Shown here: positions 30,423-50,794 of the stretch, piece after piece
Numbering within the stretch: the first letter of the stretch is position 1
Layout of the letters: every line of letters begins with the position of its first letter
From: a virus
DNA: 64,000 bases
Direction: 5' to 3' (one strand)
Virus record (IMG/VR): IMGVR_UViG_3300017963_000201
Span: 32,001-96,000 of that record
Made by a program: the position numbers and the translations under genes
Notes under the pieces: generated by a model
What the model was told of the DNA's origin: nothing
Seen by the model: only the letters and a program-made list of their open reading frames with translations
Databases searched by the model: none

Positions 30423-32426
30423 TCAACCAACTTCTGCGTATTTAGAAGTAGGTTCTTTAGTTTTTACAGCCCTTTCTCTATTTTGATTCTCTTTTAAGAT
30501 TCTTTGTACTTCTTGTAGAATTATATCCCGGTCTCTTGTTTGTCCGGCTTTGAGTAATTCTTGTATAGCAGCGTTTCCTCCCACTCTAGCTAATGACCCA
30601 AGTTTTTCGTAAGCTGCACCTTGCCGAAAAGTTGCTGGTGCGGCATTCTTTAATAAGGCACTTCGAACAGACTTATATCTATTAATTTCTTCTTTAGTTA
30701 AATCAGATCTAATAGCTGATATTAATTCACTAGCACCAGCCTTACCAGAATATAATTTAGAAAATTCTTTAGCTTCTATTGTTTTTTCAAGTACTTTTTC
30801 CCCTCTTACAGTAGCAGCCGGTAAACCTGATCGCACATTGTATGTCGATTTCCCCCCGACAATATCAATGATAGTATTCATTAAATCAAATATCGTTTCG
30901 AACCATTTTCTTAGTGTAGTTTCAATCCACTTCTTTATTCTAGCCTCCGTACCCGCTAACTTTTTAGCAATTTCAGCACCTTTATTTACAAGTACGTTTC
31001 TATTCTTTTTATACTCCGCTTCAGCATCTTTCATTTTTTCTCTGGCTTTACCAACCTCTTTAGCAAACTTAGCCAACCCTTCCCCACCTAACCCACCTCG
31101 GGTAAATGCTTGAGCCATTACCTTTTGTACTTCTTCAGAAGTAAAATTAAATTGTTTTAATAGTTTTCTAACCGCAATCTCTCGGGTATCTCCCGTAAAT
31201 TGCTGTGTATGCTTTTGTATAAATTGCCCTATGCGTTCAAACTGCTGCTCAGGAAATAAGCGTTCAAATTGTAATATCCGCGATGCTGCCGTAGATCCCT
31301 CACCTAAAGCAGCCTTCCATCCGTCTTCTAACTCGGAAGAAAATCCGGATATTGTTTTAACAATCTCTTTTCTAACTTCTCGGGGTGCCTCCCCTAGACC
31401 CAACTTCTTTGCTACATCTTTACTGATCAGAGTATTATATAAACCAAGTACACCCAAAAGGTCGGCACTATATGATCTAGTTTTATCGGTTAATTCCTTT
31501 ATGTCGCTTATAGCCTCATCCATAGAAAGCATAGGTATTGTTGCAGACGCTTCTCTAATCGTATTAAGATAACCCGCTGCCACAGACGATGTTTTATTAT
31601 AGTTTGTAACTAAATTCTTAATACCTTCAACTTGGGATTGTACATTTTGCCCATGTAGATATTCAACGGCTAATAACTCCTTTGATAGTCTTTTCATATC
31701 TTCCATTTCAAAGCCAGCACGAGCCAAACTTACATTATACTCCCCAGCAACTTCTAAGCTCTTTATAAAACTTTGTTCTATCTTGCTAATAGACGAAGAT
31801 GCAACACTGAAATTTTTATTCCCAGCAGCCCATTGCACATTTATCTGCTGGCTCATAGCACCAATTTTATCCAATTGATCCTTAAATCCTATTAATAATT
31901 TAATTATCCCACCGAGAGTCAAAGGTATAGCAGCCATATTAGCGGACCACTTACCAACCGCAGCTCCATATCTTTGAGTATCTTTAAGTATAGACCGACT
32001 AGCTTTAAGTTCTTCTTCTTTTATCTTTACGTTTTGATTACCAATTTTTATGTACTTTTCACCAAATTCAACTTTTCTTTGCTCTTCCTTAACTCGTCGT
32101 CGTGCCTTTCTAGTTAGTTGATCCCACTTTACAACTTCTGCACCAACCAACTCGGCTTCTTGTCTACGATATTTTAATAGCTCTTTCAGTTCACCTCCTT
32201 GAGCAATAATACTCTGTTCCATTTTTTTAGCAGCAGCCACAGCAGCTTGTGCTAACTTTGGATCTATTATAGACAGTTCTGGGATTTGTGCGCGTATCTG
32301 AGCTACTTCTTGCATTGCTTGTTTAATGCGCTCAGTTTGCTCTGCTGTACTTTTTGCGTGAATAGAACCTTGCTCAAATAGTAAAGTAGCCTGTTCTATA
32401 CTCGATACGTCAAAAACATCTGCCAT
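30423..32426 (-). CDS. Tape measure protein
   Basis: Helical, Ala/Lys-rich; follows frameshifted chaperone pair. Confidence 0.7.
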   Translation of the reverse strand: MADVFDVSSIEQATLLFEQGSIHAKSTAEQTERIKQAMQEVAQIRAQIPELSIIDPKLAQAAVAAAKKMEQSIIAQGGELKELLKYRRQEAELVGAEVVKWDQLTRKARRRVKEEQRKVEFGEKYIKIGNQNVKIKEEELKASRSILKDTQRYGAAVGKWSANMAAIPLTLGGIIKLLIGFKDQLDKIGAMSQQINVQWAAGNKNFSVASSSISKIEQSFIKSLEVAGEYNVSLARAGFEMEDMKRLSKELLAVEYLHGQNVQSQVEGIKNLVTNYNKTSSVAAGYLNTIREASATIPMLSMDEAISDIKELTDKTRSYSADLLGVLGLYNTLISKDVAKKLGLGEAPREVRKEIVKTISGFSSELEDGWKAALGEGSTAASRILQFERLFPEQQFERIGQFIQKHTQQFTGDTREIAVRKLLKQFNFTSEEVQKVMAQAFTRGGLGGEGLAKFAKEVGKAREKMKDAEAEYKKNRNVLVNKGAEIAKKLAGTEARIKKWIETTLRKWFETIFDLMNTIIDIVGGKSTYNVRSGLPAATVRGEKVLEKTIEAKEFSKLYSGKAGASELISAIRSDLTKEEINRYKSVRSALLKNAAPATFRQGAAYEKLGSLARVGGNAAIQELLKAGQTRDRDIILQEVQRILKENQNRERAVKTKEPTSKYAEVG

Positions 32427-36881: not shown

Positions 36882-37397
36882 CTATTTAGTAAACAACGGT
36901 TCTTTAGCTTTTGGAGGACAAGAGCACATAAGTTTCCAACATTCGGGTGCCTTGAACGCTAGTCCATAATTTTTGTACATGCCCAAGACATAAAGATCGT
37001 CATCGAACGAAACTAAAGATTCTGATGCATAGGGTACGTATGGAAGGATTTTTTGATTAAGAATTCGCTCTTTATGCTCTGTTCCTGTACTTAGCTCACC
37101 ATTGGGGCGCATATAAAGATTAATGTTCTCTTTATGAAGCGGAAAATAATTAGAAATCCATAGCAAGGTTACACTTCTAAGTCTTTCGTTCCGTCCAGTT
37201 ACAAAATGGACAGAGCTAGACTCTACGATTAATTTTGCCACACATTCTACAGAGTATGGCATGGGTGTGTCTCTTAGAACTAAGGTTGGTGATGTAAAGG
37301 TTTTCCAATCTTCTATAGTAGGTTCGTCCTTGTCTACTATGTTTTGTCTGTGAGAAAAATCACTCAAAGTCCCATCAATATCCAGGATGGTAATCAT
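36882..37397 (-). CDS. HAD-family phosphatase (polynucleotide kinase 3'-phosphatase-like)
   Basis: DIDGT, VTGR, LYMRP, FDDD. Confidence 0.8.
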   Translation of the reverse strand: MITILDIDGTLSDFSHRQNIVDKDEPTIEDWKTFTSPTLVLRDTPMPYSVECVAKLIVESSSVHFVTGRNERLRSVTLLWISNYFPLHKENINLYMRPNGELSTGTEHKERILNQKILPYVPYASESLVSFDDDLYVLGMYKNYGLAFKAPECWKLMCSCPPKAKEPLFTK

Positions 37398-39197: not shown

Positions 39198-40385
39198 TTG
39201 GATTTCTCTATAGCAGATCACACTAGTTATTTAGTGGTTGCAGGATCGCATGCCTATAAGACACACCACCAAGATAGCGACTATGATGTTAGAGGTTGGG
39301 GAATACCCCCACTAAAATACCAATTTGCTTTTGACAAACATTTTGATCAATACGATGCAAAGCATACCTATCGAAATTACCCTTTTAGGGTAGATCTAAA
39401 TTCGTATATTAAATCTCATAACCTTAGGCCACTTCCAGAAGACGAAATGATAGATCAAACTGTTTACTCAATTTCTAAATTTTTCAAGCTGGCATCAGAT
39501 TGCAACCCTAATGTGATTGAGTTATTATTTGTTGACGATACAGATATATTAATCTGTGATCCCTATGCCACAGAAGTTAAAAAACACCGAGACTTATTTT
39601 TGTCTGCCCGCGCCAAATTTAGCTATTTAGGGTATGCAATCAGTCAACTGAAGCGTATTAAAACTCATCGGAGGTGGTTACTTAATCCACCTAAAGAAAA
39701 ACCCACTAGGACTAAATACGAGCTTCCAGAGCAATCTTTAATACCACCAGAGCAACGAGGTGCTGCAGAAGCCTTGGTAAAAGCAAAAGTACGGGAATGG
39801 ACCTTACAAGATGCCGATCTTTTTTCAAAGACTGAATTAAATATGGTCCATGTAAATCACCTATCAGAGTTTGTAGGGTATCTAATAGACCGTAAAACGG
39901 ATATACAAGAAATGCTTACAGCAGCTCGCATAGCTGCAATGCACTACTACGGACTGTCAAAAAATATGATCGAAGTTTTACAAGCTGAAAAATCATATAA
40001 GGCGGCATTAATAGAATGGAACCAATACAAGAATTGGAAAGAAACCAGAAATCCTTATAGAGCTGGATTAGAAAGGGACTATGGCTATGATTTAAAACAC
40101 GCCATGCACCTTGTTAGACTAATTTTTCAAGGCGAAGAATTACTCACTAGAGGAAAAATTACAGTAAGGTGTAATCACATTCCAGAGATCGAAGAAGTAA
40201 AAGAAGGTAAGTGGAGCTACGAAAAATTAATTTATTTTGTAGAGACTAAAGAAAAAGAATTTAATATTTTGTATAATGACAAGAAGTACGTCGTACCAAA
40301 GAAGCCGAATATAAAGGCTCTGAGTAAGCTAAATACGGATCTATTAAAGAGGTATTACCATGAGAAAATTTTTCTACGACACTGA
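39198..40385 (+). CDS. Pol-beta superfamily nucleotidyltransferase (RlaP/YcgL-like)
   Basis: GSHAY..DSDYDVRG, NPNVIELLF, YDLKHAMHLVRL. Confidence 0.85.
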   Translation: MDFSIADHTSYLVVAGSHAYKTHHQDSDYDVRGWGIPPLKYQFAFDKHFDQYDAKHTYRNYPFRVDLNSYIKSHNLRPLPEDEMIDQTVYSISKFFKLASDCNPNVIELLFVDDTDILICDPYATEVKKHRDLFLSARAKFSYLGYAISQLKRIKTHRRWLLNPPKEKPTRTKYELPEQSLIPPEQRGAAEALVKAKVREWTLQDADLFSKTELNMVHVNHLSEFVGYLIDRKTDIQEMLTAARIAAMHYYGLSKNMIEVLQAEKSYKAALIEWNQYKNWKETRNPYRAGLERDYGYDLKHAMHLVRLIFQGEELLTRGKITVRCNHIPEIEEVKEGKWSYEKLIYFVETKEKEFNILYNDKKYVVPKKPNIKALSKLNTDLLKRYYHEKIFLRH

Positions 40386-40866
40386 ATTCATAGAATACCC
40401 TAGCCACATTGATCTAATATCCATAGCGCTTGTATCTGAGTCCGGGGGGTTTTTTTACGCAGTCAATAATGAGTGTGACTTTAGTAAAGCAAATCCGTGG
40501 GTCAAGGAAAACATAATTGACCATCTAGAGCCCCAGTCAGATCCTTCCTGGATGACAAGGGAAAAAATAAAAAGTGATCTGTTAAACTACTTAAAACCTG
40601 AGATAGAAGATCCTGTTCAGCTCTGGGGATATTACGCAGATTACGATCATGTAGCTTTGTGTTGGCTATTTGGGCCTATGATTAATTTACCAAAAGGTAT
40701 GCCCATGTATACCTTGGACCTAAAGCAATTGGCTTATCACCTTGGTAATCCACCATTACCGACACAGGATCTCCCAGAGCACAACGCAAAGCACGATGCC
40801 CTATGGAATCGAAGAGTTTATTTTTACCTAAAGCAGATAGCCAAACAAAAAAATATTGAGGTTTGA
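40360..40866 (+). CDS. DEDDh 3'-5' exoribonuclease (Rv2179c/RNase AS-like)
   Basis: FYDTEF, YADYDHV, DLKQ, HNAKHDA. Confidence 0.85.
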   Translation: MRKFFYDTEFIEYPSHIDLISIALVSESGGFFYAVNNECDFSKANPWVKENIIDHLEPQSDPSWMTREKIKSDLLNYLKPEIEDPVQLWGYYADYDHVALCWLFGPMINLPKGMPMYTLDLKQLAYHLGNPPLPTQDLPEHNAKHDALWNRRVYFYLKQIAKQKNIEV

Positions 40867-43657: not shown

Positions 43658-43794
43658 GGGCAAATGCTGTATGGCACTCCATAGCTTATATAAGTTCGAA
43701 TCTTATTATACCCTTCGGGGTATATAGCCTAACTGGTAAGGCAGCTTCTTATAAAGAAGCCAAGCGAAAATGTGCCACACAATACTTGTTGCCC
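43658..43794 (+). ncRNA. Y RNA 1 (YrlA-like) with permuted tRNA opened in the variable arm
   Basis: GGGCAA-ATG..CTTG-TTGCCC terminal helix; order T arm, acceptor closed by cUUCGg, D arm, anticodon arm (loop TTATAAA). Confidence 0.8.
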
Positions 43795-43809
43795 TTTATT
43801 AGTCAGATT

Positions 43810-43883
43810 TCTTGCTGAATGCAGTTTATGATTACATTTTTGTGTAAAAAAATCAGATCACAAACTAATCCTTGTCAGCAAGA
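43810..43883 (+). ncRNA. Y RNA 2 (minimal, no tRNA module)
   Basis: TCTTGCTGA-ATGCAG..GATTACATT..CCTTG-TCAGCAAGA; same conserved motifs as the other Y RNAs. Confidence 0.7.
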
Positions 43884-43892
43884 TTAATCCTT

Positions 43893-44123
43893 GGGGATCT
43901 AAATGCGCGTCAGGATTACATTGCACTTAACTGTTAATTAAGAGGTTGTTGGTTCGAGTCCAACCTGGCCCATCTCCGCTAGTGGGGGTAGGAATCCATG
44001 TCATAGGTTTACAGTCCCTCCCGTATGCTTGTGGCTTCCGCTCTTTTCTTACCCTCACTTTTATGGGCCAGTAGCTCAATTGGTAGAGATAATATGGTCT
44101 TGGCAAATACTTGTTAGATTCCC
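43893..44123 (+). ncRNA. Y RNA 3 containing permuted tRNA-Asn(GTT) with ~90-nt insert in acceptor loop
   Basis: GGGGATCTAA/TTAGATTCCC helix; anticodon arm CTTAA-CTGTTAA-TTAAG, T arm, CTGGCCC..GGGCCAG, D arm. Confidence 0.8.
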
Positions 44124-44135
44124 TTTTTATTATAA

Positions 44136-44363
44136 AATAACTGCATAAGAACGTACACTAACTTAATAAAAATTTTCGATGCACGCCTGCTCTACTCTTA
44201 TGCAGTTATTATTTTTTGGGGCATTCAGTTTTGTTTAAATATTTGGGGCAATAAAAATATTTCCTGAGTGCCTCTCTTAATTGTACTAAGAAATCGACGT
44301 TGACCATCCTTACCCCGCATCCCTACCTCAGCTTTCTAGACTTCCCTGGCAACGTCGATTTCT
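44136..44363 (+). ncRNA. Three stem/large-loop RNA elements
   Basis: Stems 44136-44210 (15 bp), 44218-44274 (11 bp), 44289-44363 (14 bp) separated by U-rich spacers. Confidence 0.55.
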
Positions 44364-44369
44364 AATTTT

Positions 44370-44464
44370 GGAGCGTCCGAAGCGTGACTGGATCATTTAA
44401 CATCCAAAAAATCAGCACTAGTTTTTACTTTGGAGTCTAGTATGCCTTCTGTGGATAACGTCTT
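44370..44464 (+). ncRNA. Possible further Y-like RNA
   Basis: GTCCGAAG 5' motif; GCGTGACTGGA/TCTAGTATGC stem; 3' motif deviates. Confidence 0.35.
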
Positions 44465-44530
44465 TAATTTGATTATGGCTTTATTTGCTTCCTGGATTAT
44501 AGTAGTATTTATAGCATCGCACTTTGGCAA

Positions 44531-44603
44531 GGGGCACTAGCCTAACGGATAAGGCATCGGCCTTCTAAGCCGACCAATCGGGGTTCGATTCCTCGGTGTC
44601 CCG
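44531..44603 (+). tRNA. tRNA-Arg(TCT)
   Basis: Full cloverleaf, loop CTTCTAA, no encoded CCA. Confidence 0.92.
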
Positions 44604-44614
44604 TAGGAGATGCT

Positions 44615-44800
44615 ATGAATGATAAGGAAATCGTTGCGGAGCTAAGAAGAATTGGATCTGATGTTTTGAATAAACTTTGGAAAGCTCACCATGATTATCA
44701 TTTCAAAACCATAGATGCCCAAGAGTTTATCAAAATATTTAAACAAGCTGTAGCTAAGTTTAATGAAGCAAATACTATCATAGAAAGAGAAAGACATTAG
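44615..44800 (+). CDS. Small hypothetical protein between tRNAs
   Basis: RBS AGGAG, 61 aa. Confidence 0.55.
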   Translation: MNDKEIVAELRRIGSDVLNKLWKAHHDYHFKTIDAQEFIKIFKQAVAKFNEANTIIERERH

Positions 44801-44883
44801 GCTGCTGTGACGGAATGGTATACGTATCAGACTTAAAATCTGATGCCCAGATGGGATTGAGGGTTCGAGTCCCCCCAGCAGCA
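44801..44883 (+). tRNA. tRNA-Leu(TAA)
   Basis: Cloverleaf with long variable arm, loop CTTAAAA. Confidence 0.92.
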
Positions 44884-44886
44884 TAC

Positions 44887-44970
44887 GGATCGGTGCCCGA
44901 GCTGGTCAAAGGGGACGGGCTGTAAACCCGTTGTCATGTGGCTACGATGGTTCGAATCCATCCCGATCCA
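44887..44970 (+). tRNA. tRNA-Tyr(GTA)
   Basis: Cloverleaf with long variable arm, loop CTGTAAA. Confidence 0.92.
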
Positions 44971-44980
44971 TATATAAGTC

Positions 44981-45119
44981 TTACTCCGAATGCAGTAAGA
45001 GATTACATTGCTCTTCGAAAGCCGTGGTTGCGGGTTCAAGTCCCGCTCCCCCGATTTCGGGGGATAGCTCAATTGGTAGAGCACGTAAAATAATCTCTTG
45101 CAACCCTTGTCGGAGTAAA
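44981..45119 (+). ncRNA. Y RNA 4 (YrlA-like) containing permuted tRNA-Arg(TCG)
   Basis: TTACTCCGA-ATG..CTTG-TCGGAGTAA helix; GCT-CTTCGAA-AGC, T arm, TCCCCCG-ATTT-CGGGGGA, D arm. Confidence 0.85.
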
Positions 45120-45909: not shown

Positions 45910-45971
45910 GCAGCGGTAGTGTACTAATCTTTCCCAAAACAGTGTCAAATGTGTCCATGCCTATCGCTGCC
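45909..45971 (+). ncRNA. Stem/large-loop element directly upstream of rsr
   Basis: GGCAGCGGTAG/CTATCGCTGCC 11-bp stem. Confidence 0.45.
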
Positions 45972-45999
45972 ATTGTCCTCACAGAAAGGGGAATGCATT

Positions 46000-47553
46000 A
46001 TGAATAAACAAGTCTTCAAAACGACTAGAGGGAAAATACCCGAAAGGGCTAATACCTACAATAAGGCAGGAGGTAAAGCTTATACGAGATCCCCAGAGGC
46101 ATCTTTAGTACAGATGGCTTTGACAGGAACTTTCTATAATACGTTCTATTGCTCCGGTAGAGCACAACTGAACGAAACGATAGATTTGTGCAAAAAGGTA
46201 GATCCTAGATTCGTAGCACAGACAGCTATCTACGCAAGAAGCAAAGGGCTCATGAAAGATATGCCTATGTTTCTTTGTGCTCATTTAGCAAAAGAAGATC
46301 CTAAACTTTTGGAGCTGATCTTTCCACAGGTAATGAGCAATGGGATAGTCCTCAAGAAGTTTGTACACATGCTTAGGTCTGGGGTTGTCGGGCGTAAAAG
46401 TATGGGGACCACGATCAAAAGAGCTGTTACTAATTGGATCCAGAATCGATCTTACCATGGGTTGTTCCGAGACGCTATCGGTGGGGATGTCACGATTGCA
46501 GACATAATAAAAATGGTTCACCCCAGACCTCAAGATAAATCAAGAGAAGCGTTCTATGCTTATTTGATCGGTAAGAAATATAATCATGAATCACTGCCTA
46601 CTATTGTAAAAGAATATGAGGCTTTCAAAAAAGGAGAAACCAAAGAAGTACCCAATGTAGAGTTTCGTTACTTAACTTCTCTGAAACTGGGTAAAACCGA
46701 ATGGACCCAAATTGCCTTGAACGCCCCTTGGCATATGTGTCGAATGAACTTGAATACCTTTGATCGCCATGGGGTATTCAAGGATAAAAAAGTGACAAAA
46801 AGAATTGCCGACAAAATCAGGGACCGCGAATCAATAAGAAAGGTTGGCGTATTCCCCTACCAACTTTTGGCAGCATACAAAGCAGAGAAGGATTTGCCAC
46901 GAGAGATCATTGAGTCTCTGCACGATGCAATGGAAATCGCAACCAAGAATGTGCCCACTGTTGAAGGGAAAGTTGTATTGTGCCCGGACGTATCAGGTTC
47001 TATGCAAAGCTATAGCGTTACAGGGTCAAAAAATTCTAGTATAAAGCCGTTAGACGTTGCCGCTTTAGTTACAGCCGTGGTATTGAGAAATAACCCAGAC
47101 GCTTTGGTTTTACCCTTCGATACAGGATTACACAATATAAGACTCGAACCTAGAGATACGGTTATGACTAATGCAAACAAACTAGGGAGAATTTATGGTG
47201 GAGGTACCTCAGTAAGTGTACCCATGCGGTATCTTATAGACAAAAGGATCAAAGCCGATGTCATTATCTACATAAGCGACAACGAGTCTTGGGCAGATCC
47301 TTATCACCGAAGTACTGCTTTAGAAGGGTACTGGCAACAATTCAAATCAAAGAATAGAAACGCTAAACTTATTTGTATCGACACTTATGTAGAGAAAAAC
47401 GTACAGGCTAAAGATGCTCCAGATGTATTAAACATTGGTGGTTTTTCAGACAACGTTTTTACGCTAATAAATCTTTTTCTTAATGGAAGCATTGGTACTG
47501 AGGGTATCGTAAGCGAAGTCAAAAAAATTAACATGGGAGAGCGTGATGCCTAA
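46000..47553 (+). CDS. rsr: Ro60/TROVE RNA-binding protein (Rsr)
   Basis: NKAGGKAY, TGTFYNTFY, IKMVHPRP, RMNLNTF, VFPYQLL, vWA MIDAS DVSGSM, GGT, SDNESW, IGGFSD. Confidence 0.93.
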   Translation: MNKQVFKTTRGKIPERANTYNKAGGKAYTRSPEASLVQMALTGTFYNTFYCSGRAQLNETIDLCKKVDPRFVAQTAIYARSKGLMKDMPMFLCAHLAKEDPKLLELIFPQVMSNGIVLKKFVHMLRSGVVGRKSMGTTIKRAVTNWIQNRSYHGLFRDAIGGDVTIADIIKMVHPRPQDKSREAFYAYLIGKKYNHESLPTIVKEYEAFKKGETKEVPNVEFRYLTSLKLGKTEWTQIALNAPWHMCRMNLNTFDRHGVFKDKKVTKRIADKIRDRESIRKVGVFPYQLLAAYKAEKDLPREIIESLHDAMEIATKNVPTVEGKVVLCPDVSGSMQSYSVTGSKNSSIKPLDVAALVTAVVLRNNPDALVLPFDTGLHNIRLEPRDTVMTNANKLGRIYGGGTSVSVPMRYLIDKRIKADVIIYISDNESWADPYHRSTALEGYWQQFKSKNRNAKLICIDTYVEKNVQAKDAPDVLNIGGFSDNVFTLINLFLNGSIGTEGIVSEVKKINMGERDA

Positions 47554-48304
47554 ACTTCATGAATTATTGGCAGTAGAGTCAGATCTAAAAAATCAATTTG
47601 ATAAGATCTTGCAAGAGACTATTGTTACATTCACCAAAAAGCAAGATCATTTTATGGGCGTGCATAAGACTCTAAAAATGATCGATGATAATCGGGCTCA
47701 TGAGGAAGAAGCAGCTACTCAGTACAAAGAGCTTGATGATACCGTAGACGGTAAATTGGACTATACTTGGAAGTATGTTTCCAAGTATATTAATGCGATT
47801 CATCAGAAGGAAAGTACAAACCAAACTGCTAAAGCAGACCTGGTTGTGGAAGGTAAGGTTTTAGCCAAAGACCTTCCTGCCACTTTACTTTTGAGCATGG
47901 AATCGAAGCTAAAGTTTCTTCGTGGGGTCTACGAAAAGATACCCACGCTACAACCCGGAGTAAAGTGGGTACCAGATCCACAAAGAGGTAAAGGTGTGTT
48001 TCAGGCAGAGCCTCCAGAGATGACCCATAAAACGGAGAAGGATCTGAAATCGAAAACTCTGTTTGAGGGTAATAAAGAACACCCACCACAAATTGAAAAG
48101 TGGATGGAATCTTTCGTTGTGGGTACCTACACAAAAGATATGTGGTCTGGTATGTATTCTCCAGCCAAGAAGTCTGAGGTTTTGGGTAGATTGGATACCC
48201 TGATTCAAAGCATCAAAAAAGCCCGTATGCGTGCAAACGATACAGAGGTTTTGAAGACCGAAGTTAATCTTGCGGGTGCGTTGTATAGCTATTTGACAAA
48301 GTGA
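47546..48304 (+). CDS. Uncharacterised helical protein coupled to rsr
   Basis: 253 aa, overlaps rsr stop; MPKLHELLAVE..LPATLLL..IPTL..HPPQ..ARMRAN. Confidence 0.75.
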   Translation: MPKLHELLAVESDLKNQFDKILQETIVTFTKKQDHFMGVHKTLKMIDDNRAHEEEAATQYKELDDTVDGKLDYTWKYVSKYINAIHQKESTNQTAKADLVVEGKVLAKDLPATLLLSMESKLKFLRGVYEKIPTLQPGVKWVPDPQRGKGVFQAEPPEMTHKTEKDLKSKTLFEGNKEHPPQIEKWMESFVVGTYTKDMWSGMYSPAKKSEVLGRLDTLIQSIKKARMRANDTEVLKTEVNLAGALYSYLTK

Positions 48305-48312
48305 ACAAGCTT

Positions 48313-48622
48313 TGGGCCAGCATCATAATTAGTCTCTGTTGTTAATTTTGTCCTTGGTGTTTTGCCCACAGCTTTAAACCTAAAGACGGATCAATTACTG
48401 GGCATGAATAAAAACCGCGTGCAGTGCGGGTTCAAGTCCCGTTCCGACCACCATATGGTCGGATAGTTCAATGGTAGAACGCATGCTTGATCAGATTCTA
48501 AATCGTGTGCCAGGAAAGATTCGGTACAGGGGGCTCGCTGGATGCCCTGTATCCCAGCACTTGGGTGGGATTGCTGTTGTGAAAAATGGTGATTTTTTAT
48601 AGCGGGCAATCCCATCTCTTTT
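48313..48622 (+). ncRNA. Structured RNA with permuted tRNA-like module, ending in a terminator
   Basis: T arm 48426-42, acceptor TCCGACC-ACCA-TAT-GGTCGGA, D arm 48466-80, closed by GCGTGC/GCATGC; several flanking stems; hairpin+U tract at 48564-48622. Confidence 0.75.
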
Positions 48623-49109
48623 TATTATGAAAAGTATAAATTTTACTATAGATATACCATACCGCTTATACCAACATTTTAATCTTAATTTTTACTTAAT
48701 TATAGGAAAGAATGAATTCCAGGTATCCCCCTTAAATTATTTTTGTCTCAATAATCCCCCCATAGAAAGCATGCGAAAGCTTATAGTTGATACACTGGTA
48801 TCCTATGACAAAGACAAAAAATAATTCTTTAGATGCGGACATGGGAGATCTTAGATTAAAGATTATACCGAATCCTTATTTAGAAAGTAGAACTATAGTA
48901 GTTTCTTTGGACGTATTTCGAGATCTCGGGTTTGCTTACCAGGAATTTAGGGATGAAAGAAACGATACTGGAAGAAAAAAAGACTGAGTATAAAAGATCT
49001 ATGACAGGATGCGTACCGATAGATCACGGAAAAACATATATTAAATTATATAGATCTTTATTTTGGTACCAACAAAAACATGCTTTATATGATGCCCTAC
49101 TAGAGTTAT

Positions 49110-49892: not shown

Positions 49893-50213
49893 ATGGGATT
49901 TGGAGATCAAAAGTTAATAGAAGAACAAAAAAGATTAGCCAAAATAGAAAAAGCAGAAAAAGAACATAAGCCCGTATTATATAAAGTTGTGGGTGAGAGG
50001 CAAGTGTCGGTCAAGACAGAATTAACTATTAAAGCCAGATCGGAAGAGGAAGCTGAAGATTTGTTTTTCAAAGAAATTAAAAACTACGATTTAAATCAAT
50101 TTGATTATTGCCCTGGAAATGAGGACATCGAAATTGAATCGATTGAAGCTTTACAAGCCATAGAAGAACCAGATGATAAAACGCTAAATCTTTTTAATAC
50201 AAAATCCTCATGA
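49893..50213 (+). CDS. Hypothetical protein
   Basis: Operonic ORF. Confidence 0.5.
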   Translation: MGFGDQKLIEEQKRLAKIEKAEKEHKPVLYKVVGERQVSVKTELTIKARSEEEAEDLFFKEIKNYDLNQFDYCPGNEDIEIESIEALQAIEEPDDKTLNLFNTKSS

Positions 50214-50794
50214 TATTTTTTACGGCTGATACGCACTTTAACCATACAAATATTTTAAAGTTATGTATGCGTCCTTATTACTGTATCAAGGAAATGAACG
50301 AGGATATAATTGAAAGGTGGAATACCACAGTAACAACAAATGATATTGTTTTTCATTTGGGTGACTTTAGCTTTTCAGACCCAAGACCCTTTTTAGCTCG
50401 ATTAAATGGGCAAATTATTATTATAAAAGGTAACCACGACAACAGATCTGTACGTAAAAAGTTTAATATATATTCACACCAAATGCGCATGAGGATTGGC
50501 AACTTTTTTTGTTTATTAAATCACCGACCCCTATACTCAGGGACTAATAAAGATCACCACGATCCAAAAGAAGAAATAGCTTATCCAGCAAGATACGATT
50601 TTATAATTTCCGGCCACGTTCACGAGAAATGGCTCTGGACGGGCCGATCTTTAAATGTAGGGGTTGATCAACACGAATTTACGCCTCTGAGTTACCCCCT
50701 TGTCCTAAACTTACTTTATGCTCGTAAAGAGCACCTTATGACTAAACATGCTACATCGTGGGATAAAATTAAACAAAAAAACTTAGACGAATAG
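50210..50794 (+). CDS. Calcineurin-like metallophosphoesterase
   Basis: DTHF, HLGD, GNHD, GHVH, NVGVD. Confidence 0.9.
   Translation: MIFFTADTHFNHTNILKLCMRPYYCIKEMNEDIIERWNTTVTTNDIVFHLGDFSFSDPRPFLARLNGQIIIIKGNHDNRSVRKKFNIYSHQMRMRIGNFFCLLNHRPLYSGTNKDHHDPKEEIAYPARYDFIISGHVHEKWLWTGRSLNVGVDQHEFTPLSYPLVLNLLYARKEHLMTKHATSWDKIKQKNLDE

Follow-up and report, generated by a model that had tools for sequence, protein, structure and literature searches.

A conserved RNA with a permuted tRNA-like head encoded beside DUF7873 genes in phages

We analyzed a stretch of 64,000 nucleotides of virus DNA (hereafter, the window), positions 32,001 to 96,000 of the 144,959-base IMG/VR record IMGVR_UViG_3300017963_000201, in which a gene for a protein of the DUF7873 family is followed, on the same strand, by a structured RNA of about 320 nucleotides. 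Our comparison of this pair with its relatives shows that the RNA is conserved and, as judged by covariation and by the bases that it preserves, that it folds as a true transfer RNA (tRNA)-like L-shape; the distribution of its copies likewise shows that it travels with DUF7873 and not with Ro60. The reading that we favor, to which we give a probability of about 0.5, is that this element is a Ro-independent, Y-RNA-like tRNA mimic that is probably cleaved by ribonuclease P (RNase P), giving two pieces and a CCA end, and that works with DUF7873. The binding of DUF7873 to the RNA, the cutting of the RNA, and its function are what we infer from sequence comparison and from the predicted fold.

Recurrence of the RNA beside DUF7873 genes

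The relatives used in this comparison were collected by protein only, blind to the RNA: 80 viral contigs and 4 short GTDB contigs were retrieved by protein-pattern scans and confirmed by tblastn. A strict permuted-tRNA pattern placed the module 100-300 nucleotides 3' of the gene in about 30 of these protein-retrieved contigs. With covariance model R1, which was built from 29 loci (alignment A2) and for which only matches above 45 bits were counted, the module was found in about 76 of the 82 usable IMG/VR and GTDB loci, on the same strand as the gene and 100-850 nucleotides past its stop codon. It was also present in all four loci obtained by an exact-protein look-up and in eight of nine cultured phages with a protein identity of 25-46% (Rhizobium RHph_Y65, Vibrio D517, Ralstonia phiRSL1, Klebsiella KpLz-2_45, Rhodococcus NiceHouse, Arthrobacter Racecar, Gordonia Fryberger, Gordonia GodonK, and a Microcoleus phage), where it occupies gaps without an annotated RNA feature, three of which hold a small hypothetical coding sequence. 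Combining the three retrieval routes, 88 of about 95 sampled loci (about 93%) have the module next to DUF7873 and on its strand, and the presence of the same module beside so many homologues is not a matter of chance. An earlier note on this stretch, made from the sequence alone, had proposed a second protein-RNA system whose partner is the 253-amino-acid protein; the conserved RNA found beside the homologues of that protein lends the proposal genetic support. At one of the four loci from the exact-protein look-up (L087), the RNA (1254-1345) lies upstream of the DUF7873 gene (1501-2250), also on the same strand.

Within 4 kb, none of 84 related loci gave a tblastn match to Ro60. Of five large phage records with DUF7873, four (two of them rated complete) have no Ro60, and in the fifth it is 200 kb distant. 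The window is unlike the 84 related loci in that rsr, its Ro60-like gene, is found within about 4 kb of the RNA and on the same strand. The DUF7873 gene had been described in the earlier note as coupled to rsr; the overlap between both genes holds for this phage, and the coupling is particular to it. The neighboring protein genes, which belong to replication and nucleotide metabolism, differ from locus to locus and include no fixed partner protein; the 62 upstream neighbors in other loci include a CCA-adding enzyme (2) and an RNA ligase (2).

Searches that started from a single sequence were empty: blastn of the locus against phage records gave nothing, nor did a single-sequence scan of the viral contigs, so that an alignment-based scan was needed. 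A search for DUF7873 in 401 genomes of one bacterial phylum returned the starting genome only, and our full-text literature and RNA-library searches gave no description of the DUF7873/RNA pair.

The RNA varies in several respects among its carriers. Six of the cultured phages (L092-L097: phiRSL1, KpLz-2_45, NiceHouse, Racecar, Fryberger, and GodonK), whose DUF7873 genes are the more distant ones, have two tandem permuted heads about 150 nucleotides apart, and in Fryberger and GodonK a small hypothetical coding sequence is annotated inside the gap with the two heads. Other members form a single-head subfamily, in which N-CCA and UAU signals are conserved. In about 32 of 79 loci (about 40%), a tRNA-shaped element in normal order stands 40-63 nucleotides past the permuted module (for example, L011:4995-5067, L051:5405-5477, and L083:1785-1857). 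Some of these elements score 60-72 bits as tRNA and many have odd anticodons or loop sizes (ARAGORN 'tRNA-???'; att, atg, tta); instead of functional tRNAs, they may represent another head of the same RNA. Two extra hairpins of the window RNA (48525-48565) stand in the place where relatives carry this element. The terminal hairpins of many relatives (L016, L036, L002, L066, L047, and L065), about 100-200 nucleotides past the module, have unrelated stems and a conserved loop of eight nucleotides, AAGGNNAU, that is absent from the terminal hairpin of the window (48567-48613). In one GTDB contig (L084, G009:C312:2890-3579), the DUF7873 match is broken by two TAG codons and one TAA codon; the gene may be disrupted, or a stop codon may have been reassigned in this phage. 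In NiceHouse (L094:2874-3723), an isolated instance, the RNA and a tRNA-Lys are followed by a gene for a band-7-like membrane protein.

Fold of the RNA and signals in its acceptor loop

Our statistics on the family were drawn from 70 distinct copies. The anticodon-like stem, a helix that was absent from the discovery pattern, covaries at all five of its pairs (29 sequences). The Levitt pair 15:48, which lies outside the base pairs of the model, is G:C in 51 copies, A:U in 16, and of another kind in 3, and in the window it is A15:U48. U8 is present in 70 of 70 copies; A14, G18, G19, and A21 are conserved, and the T loop of the family reads TTCRANY. Beyond the anticodon-like stem, the two flanks of the head form a helix of 13 base pairs (RNAalifold) that is 87.7% paired, against 31-44% when the partner strand is slid, with covariation at 13 of its 13 pairs. 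Conserved blocks occur on both of its flanks, ATCAAnTAnnTGG on the 5' side and nTnAGnnTGAnA followed by TCAAYGAAAGA on the 3' side (family consensus). Still further 5' lies a hairpin region that, across the family, has a lag-6 autocorrelation of 0.344, against about 0.26 at other lags, and a fourfold enrichment of YAGY. The pairing of the flanks, their conserved blocks, and the 5' hairpin give the RNA the overall design of a rod with a tRNA head, as in Y RNAs. In the window, the two genes and the parts of the RNA are arranged as follows.

45949..47553, plus strand: rsr (Ro60-like) gene; Pfam vWA_Ro60 (4e-23) and TROVE; NCBIfam Rsr at 9.5e-30, below the equivalog cut-off
47546..48304, plus strand: DUF7873 gene; 252 amino acids from the ATG at 47546, 253 from the GTG at 47543
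48305..48626, plus strand: whole structured RNA, ~320 nucleotides, beginning directly past the DUF7873 stop codon and ending with the U tract of the putative terminator; extent estimated from family conservation and the terminal hairpin
48307..48374, plus strand: 5' hairpin (from the fold), with weak six-base repeats on its 5' arm (CAGCAT CATAAT TAGTCT)
48356..48377, plus strand: family-conserved block GGTGTTTTGCCCACAGCTTTAA, the 3' arm that closes the 5' hairpin (alignments A5 and A6)
48390..48407, plus strand: conserved 5' strand ATCAATTACT, then the 5' strand of the long-range helix (alignments A5 and A6)
48417..48421, plus strand: upstream strand GCGTG of the anticodon-stem equivalent, 5 base pairs with 48482-48486
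48422..48442, plus strand: four-nucleotide variable loop CAGT (U48 = 48425) and T arm GCGGG TTCAAGT CCCGT (48426-48442)
48443..48463, plus strand: acceptor stem of 7 base pairs closed by the loop A-CCA-UAU (read from the sequence); 3' strand TCCGACC 48443-48449, A 48450, CCA 48451-48453, TAT 48454-48456, 5' strand GGTCGGA 48457-48463
48464..48481, plus strand: U8-A9 linker (TA, 48464-48465), D arm GTTC AATGGTA GAAC (48466-48480), and G26
48482..48519, plus strand: downstream strand CATGC of the anticodon-stem equivalent, a conserved strand of the internal loop, the long-range helix in its 3' strand (48503-48513), and GGAAAGA block (48513-48519) (alignments A5 and A6)
48525..48565, plus strand: two extra hairpins, 48525-48551 (stem of 7 base pairs) and 48553-48565 (from the fold; not conserved in the family)
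48567..48626, plus strand: long terminal hairpin (48567-48613), then ATCTCTTTTTATT (from the fold)

The multi-stem RNA that had been noticed directly after the gene for the 253-amino-acid protein is present, and its permuted module reads exactly as had been claimed: T arm, TCCGACC+A+CCA, TAT, GGTCGGA, D arm. The minimum-free-energy fold of 48305-48630 reproduces the tRNA-like arms at -114 kcal/mol, with z = -3.9 against 100 shuffles, and its long-range helix, paired with 48503-48513, has one bulge. The conserved blocks of the window RNA align with 44 homologous loci, and the list of open reading frames shows none of note from 48305 to about 48626. The terminal hairpin and the ATCTCTTTTTATT that follows it are likely an intrinsic terminator, which the consensus terminator scanner did not list because its stem and loop exceed the limits of that program.

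Several other candidate features were considered and set aside. As a separate promoter for the RNA, the site at 48302-48329 matches at 9 of 12 positions in a region without an excess of such sites, and we claim no promoter there. We also abandoned a loop-E motif, for which the conserved internal loop would have to be read as AGUA/GAA, as its G is not conserved and the window has AUUAC. A split group I intron that would circularize a tRNA was rejected too, given that the flanks pair in one long covarying helix and that no intron model matched at E<=10.

The acceptor loop, read in the same family, resembles the sequences that surround a tRNA before its maturation. Any base followed by CCA (N-CCA) comes directly after the acceptor 3' strand in 61 of the 70 copies, and is kept in at least one head in seven cultured phages; the remainder of the loop is 81% A/U. 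At its 3' end the loop mostly reads UAU, with U in 54, A in 49, and U (position -1) in 44 of the 70 copies, and a G at +1 opens the acceptor 5' strand in 49 of 70. Among the canonical tRNA genes of the same contigs, the commonest leader is likewise TAT, U occupies position -1 in 46%, and CCA is encoded in 71%. The combination of N-CCA, an A/U spacer, and UAU before G+1 makes the loop look as though the 3' trailer of a tRNA had been joined to the 5' leader of one, and the proposal that it is built for cutting to a CCA end gains support from the comparison. Bacterial RNase P prefers an acceptor stem of 7 base pairs and U at -1. There is a precedent in the YrlA RNA of Mycobacterium smegmatis, which also has an acceptor stem of 7 base pairs, is cut by RNase P in vitro, and occurs in vivo as two halves, one of which ends in CCA (PMC4201824). 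On the strength of these loop signals, the preference of the enzyme, and this precedent, we predict that RNase P cleaves between U48456 and G48457 and that trimming would leave A48453 as the mature 3' end.

The DUF7873 protein and its locus in the window

The protein matches Pfam DUF7873 (PF25283) at 2.9e-64 with 217.6 bits, against a gathering score of 27, its residues 2-252 aligning with positions 1-242 of the 244 in the profile. The family is large, with 2456 clusters (50% identity) at E<=0.001, and comes mainly from viruses, which make up 75% of the ESM Atlas cluster. Structure prediction and Foldseek, which the earlier note had suggested, gave a confident AlphaFold2 model (predicted local distance difference test, pLDDT, 90; predicted template modeling score, pTM, 0.79) and, against the PDB, nothing at E<=0.001. 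A comparison of the model with 48,161 chains by VIA-align gave a best Z of 8.7, with generic helical bundles throughout; the ESM Atlas search returned DUF7873 itself only; the profile search of PDB sequences found no match; and PHROGs, NCBIfam, and PADLOC assigned no family.

When modeled as a homodimer, DUF7873 reached an interaction prediction score from aligned errors (ipSAE) of 0.74, against 0.00 for the best of three controls. Of proteins solved as pairs of one chain, 20 of 30 reach the same mark, against 1 of 23 of those solved as single chains. The homodimer runs agreed in at least 98% of their contacts, with a pLDDT of at least 89 for the partner, and the models support the dimerization of DUF7873. 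The invariant basic residues K225 and R228, and also K210, are not among the listed residues of the predicted interface; the three belong to a conserved basic helix and are candidate RNA contacts.

The stop codon of rsr (TAA, 47551-47553) overlaps with the start of the DUF7873 gene (ATG, 47546) within ATGCCTAA. The surroundings include genes for a HAD PNKP-type phosphatase (36882-37397, minus strand), an RlaP nucleotidyltransferase (39198-40385), an RNase AS-like 3' exoribonuclease (40360-40866), and a metallophosphoesterase (50210-50794), as well as a tRNA array and Ro-type Y RNAs upstream of rsr. The DUF7873 cassette therefore sits in an island of RNA-repair and tRNA functions, translationally coupled to Ro60. 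What makes the window unusual is that one operon among RNA-repair genes holds both the Ro60/Y RNA system and the DUF7873/RNA pair, which suggests that both systems serve a shared process; the arrangement is atypical of the family.

The array of Ro-type Y RNAs spans 43658-45119, and its members have the common handle AATGC ... GATTACATT ... CTTGT; exact matches to GATTACATT occur only at 43830, 43914, and 45001. Two of these Y RNAs have permuted tRNA heads of their own, at 43690-43742 (loop TTCG) and 45030-45082 (loop ATTT), which score 42 and 44.5 bits with covariance model R1 and in which a short loop that contains no CCA closes the acceptor stem.

Alternative explanations and meaning of the pair

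The closest known relative in design is the YrlA RNA (RF02553; Chen et al. 2014, PMC4201824; Wang et al. 2018, bioRxiv 10.1101/312249), which shares with the DUF7873 RNA a rod of paired flanks, a circularly permuted tRNA body (T arm first, then the acceptor stem, then the D arm), and the conserved elbow nucleotides and UA linker. The two differ in several respects. The partner here is DUF7873 instead of Ro60, which most carriers lack. The CCA is encoded and conserved here, whereas in YrlA the loop is usually closed and the RNA 'lacks a free CCA end'. In addition, the DUF7873 RNA is longer (about 320 nucleotides), has a repeat-bearing 5' hairpin and conserved internal loops of its own, and scores under half of the Rfam gathering score. 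The proposal in the earlier note of a separate class of RNA is borne out in that no Rfam family reaches its gathering score on the window RNA, so that the strong match to an existing family, for which we had searched, is missing; nor does YrlA reach its gathering score in 17 related loci. It needs a qualification, however, as the head is of YrlA design, and RNase P cutting to a CCA end was already on record for the M. smegmatis YrlA (PMC4201824).

This likeness raises the question of whether the element is a fifth Y RNA of the phage, that is, an ordinary YrlA-type RNA bound by the product of rsr, encoded 750 bases upstream. It lies on the same strand as rsr and within 1 kb of it, the rsr and DUF7873 genes overlap, and the Rfam YrlA model matches the T-acceptor-D core with E = 6e-4. 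That match, however, extends over model positions 30-81 of 114 only, with 30.7 bits, far below the gathering score of 69. The motif by which YrlA binds Ro near its 5' end, GNCGAAN0-1G (PMC4201824), is absent from 48305-48626 and is found in only 4 of 70 family 5' flanks. The handle GATTACATT of the Y RNAs upstream of rsr is equally absent from 48305-48626, as had been claimed for the Ro-binding motif of Y1-Y4, and relatives of the RNA occur without Ro60. We regard this explanation as improbable. A separate reading, to which we assign a low probability though not a negligible one, is that the RNA acts alone or in cis and DUF7873 is not its binding partner, in which case it would be a decoy, or an element for the stability, processing, or autoregulation of the DUF7873 transcript, and would stay beside the gene for reasons of expression. 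Its usual place in the 3' untranslated region ahead of a terminator would fit such a role, and so would a DUF7873 protein without a recognizable RNA-binding domain. However, an element of that region needs no full tRNA tertiary fold, no encoded CCA, and no rod of 13 base pairs; the pair also persists in L087, where the RNA is upstream of the gene, and the pairing holds down to 27% protein identity while all other neighbors change.

Circularly permuted tRNA genes are known in the red alga Cyanidioschyzon merolae and some archaea (reviewed in PMC4090602), where they mature to decoding tRNAs by a cut at a bulge-helix-bulge site and ligation. As in the DUF7873 RNA, their 3' half is encoded first, and the acceptor ends are joined by a spacer that RNase P and 3' processing would remove. 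Were the window RNA such a gene, its ends would be cut and joined to an anticodon loop and its acceptor loop opened, and it does have the CCA, the acceptor stem of 7 base pairs, and all arms except that loop. Instead, its anticodon-like stem runs through conserved internal loops into the covarying helix of 13 base pairs, which leaves no room for an anticodon loop. No bulge-helix-bulge site is present, the flanks next to the stem are conserved as a motif and not as anticodons, bacteria to our knowledge have no splicing endonuclease, and neither ARAGORN nor the Rfam tRNA model called a tRNA at 48412-48494; we consider a decoding tRNA very improbable. Just as far-fetched, in our judgment, is a two-piece transfer-messenger RNA (tmRNA) for ribosome rescue or protein tagging. 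The order of its parts (T arm, acceptor 3' strand, CCA, spacer, acceptor 5' strand) is that of permuted ssrA (Keiler, Shapiro and Williams 2000, cited in PMC9004378), in which, as predicted for the DUF7873 RNA, the piece ending in CCA precedes that with the acceptor 5' strand, the intervening loop is removed from a single precursor, and the pieces stay paired; two-piece tmRNA is also known in phages (PMC9004378). Against this, ARAGORN called no tmRNA and no Rfam tmRNA family matched even at E<=10. The G3:U70 pair, whose absence had been pointed out before, is replaced by U3:A70 in the window, and G:U occurs at this position in 1 of 70 copies. The 3' domain is variable, without a conserved reading frame; neither a tag frame nor pseudoknots were detected, no link to SmpB was seen, and the DUF7873 RNA has a full D arm with a real D stem and an anticodon-like stem, unlike tmRNA.

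Several observations weigh against the reading of the RNA as a Ro-independent tRNA mimic that works with DUF7873. The adjacency of two genes is by itself no demonstration of binding, and no RNA-binding domain was recognizable in DUF7873 by Pfam, Foldseek, VIA-align, or the PDB profile search. Among the cultured phages, the one from Microcoleus gave no R1 match. The CCA is missing from 9 of 70 copies, in which the loop is usually extended into a hairpin, and in 6 copies it is paired with UGG; an open CCA end may therefore not be universal. The discriminator base (U28, G17, C9, A7) and the acceptor pairs vary, so that no single aminoacyl-tRNA synthetase identity is apparent.

If the DUF7873 RNA is indeed such a mimic, its working could be pictured as follows. 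Many tailed phages carry a cassette of two parts, a DUF7873 protein and a structured RNA of about 320 nucleotides from the same strand, whose acceptor-closing loop would mimic a tRNA 3' trailer joined to a 5' leader. The host RNase P would cut before G48457, and trimming of the 3' side would leave ...ACCA-3'OH. The two resulting pieces would stay joined through pairing in the acceptor stem, in the anticodon-like stem, and along the rod. A homodimer of DUF7873 would bind the part that is not tRNA-like (the internal loops or the repeat hairpin) and display the tRNA head, and the particle would act on, or distract, enzymes that recognize tRNA bodies and CCA ends, probably in tRNA damage and repair during infection. 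In its most specific form, this proposal describes a widespread phage ribonucleoprotein in which a DUF7873 dimer of new fold holds a two-piece tRNA without an anticodon, given its CCA-3'OH by host enzymes, as a bait, substrate, or sensor for enzymes of the tRNA 3' end; in that full form we consider it possible yet doubtful.

RNAs of the Y type with a tRNA head have been known solely in partnership with Ro60; in the present case an RNA of this design accompanies another protein, which is uncharacterized. The carriers span a very large phage family, with its 2456 clusters, and include cultivable phages of Klebsiella, Gordonia, Rhizobium, Vibrio, and Ralstonia. DUF7873 RNAs conserve a CCA end and RNase P-type signals that are exceptional in YrlA, so that what the tRNA head does can be tested directly, and this conservation directs attention to the biology of tRNA 3' ends in infection. 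If the ribonucleoprotein reading is true, the candidate targets would be the CCA-adding enzyme, the synthetases, and host toxins that modify or clip CCA ends, and the pair would be a Ro-independent counterpart of Ro60 and Y RNA in the conflict between phage and host over tRNA.

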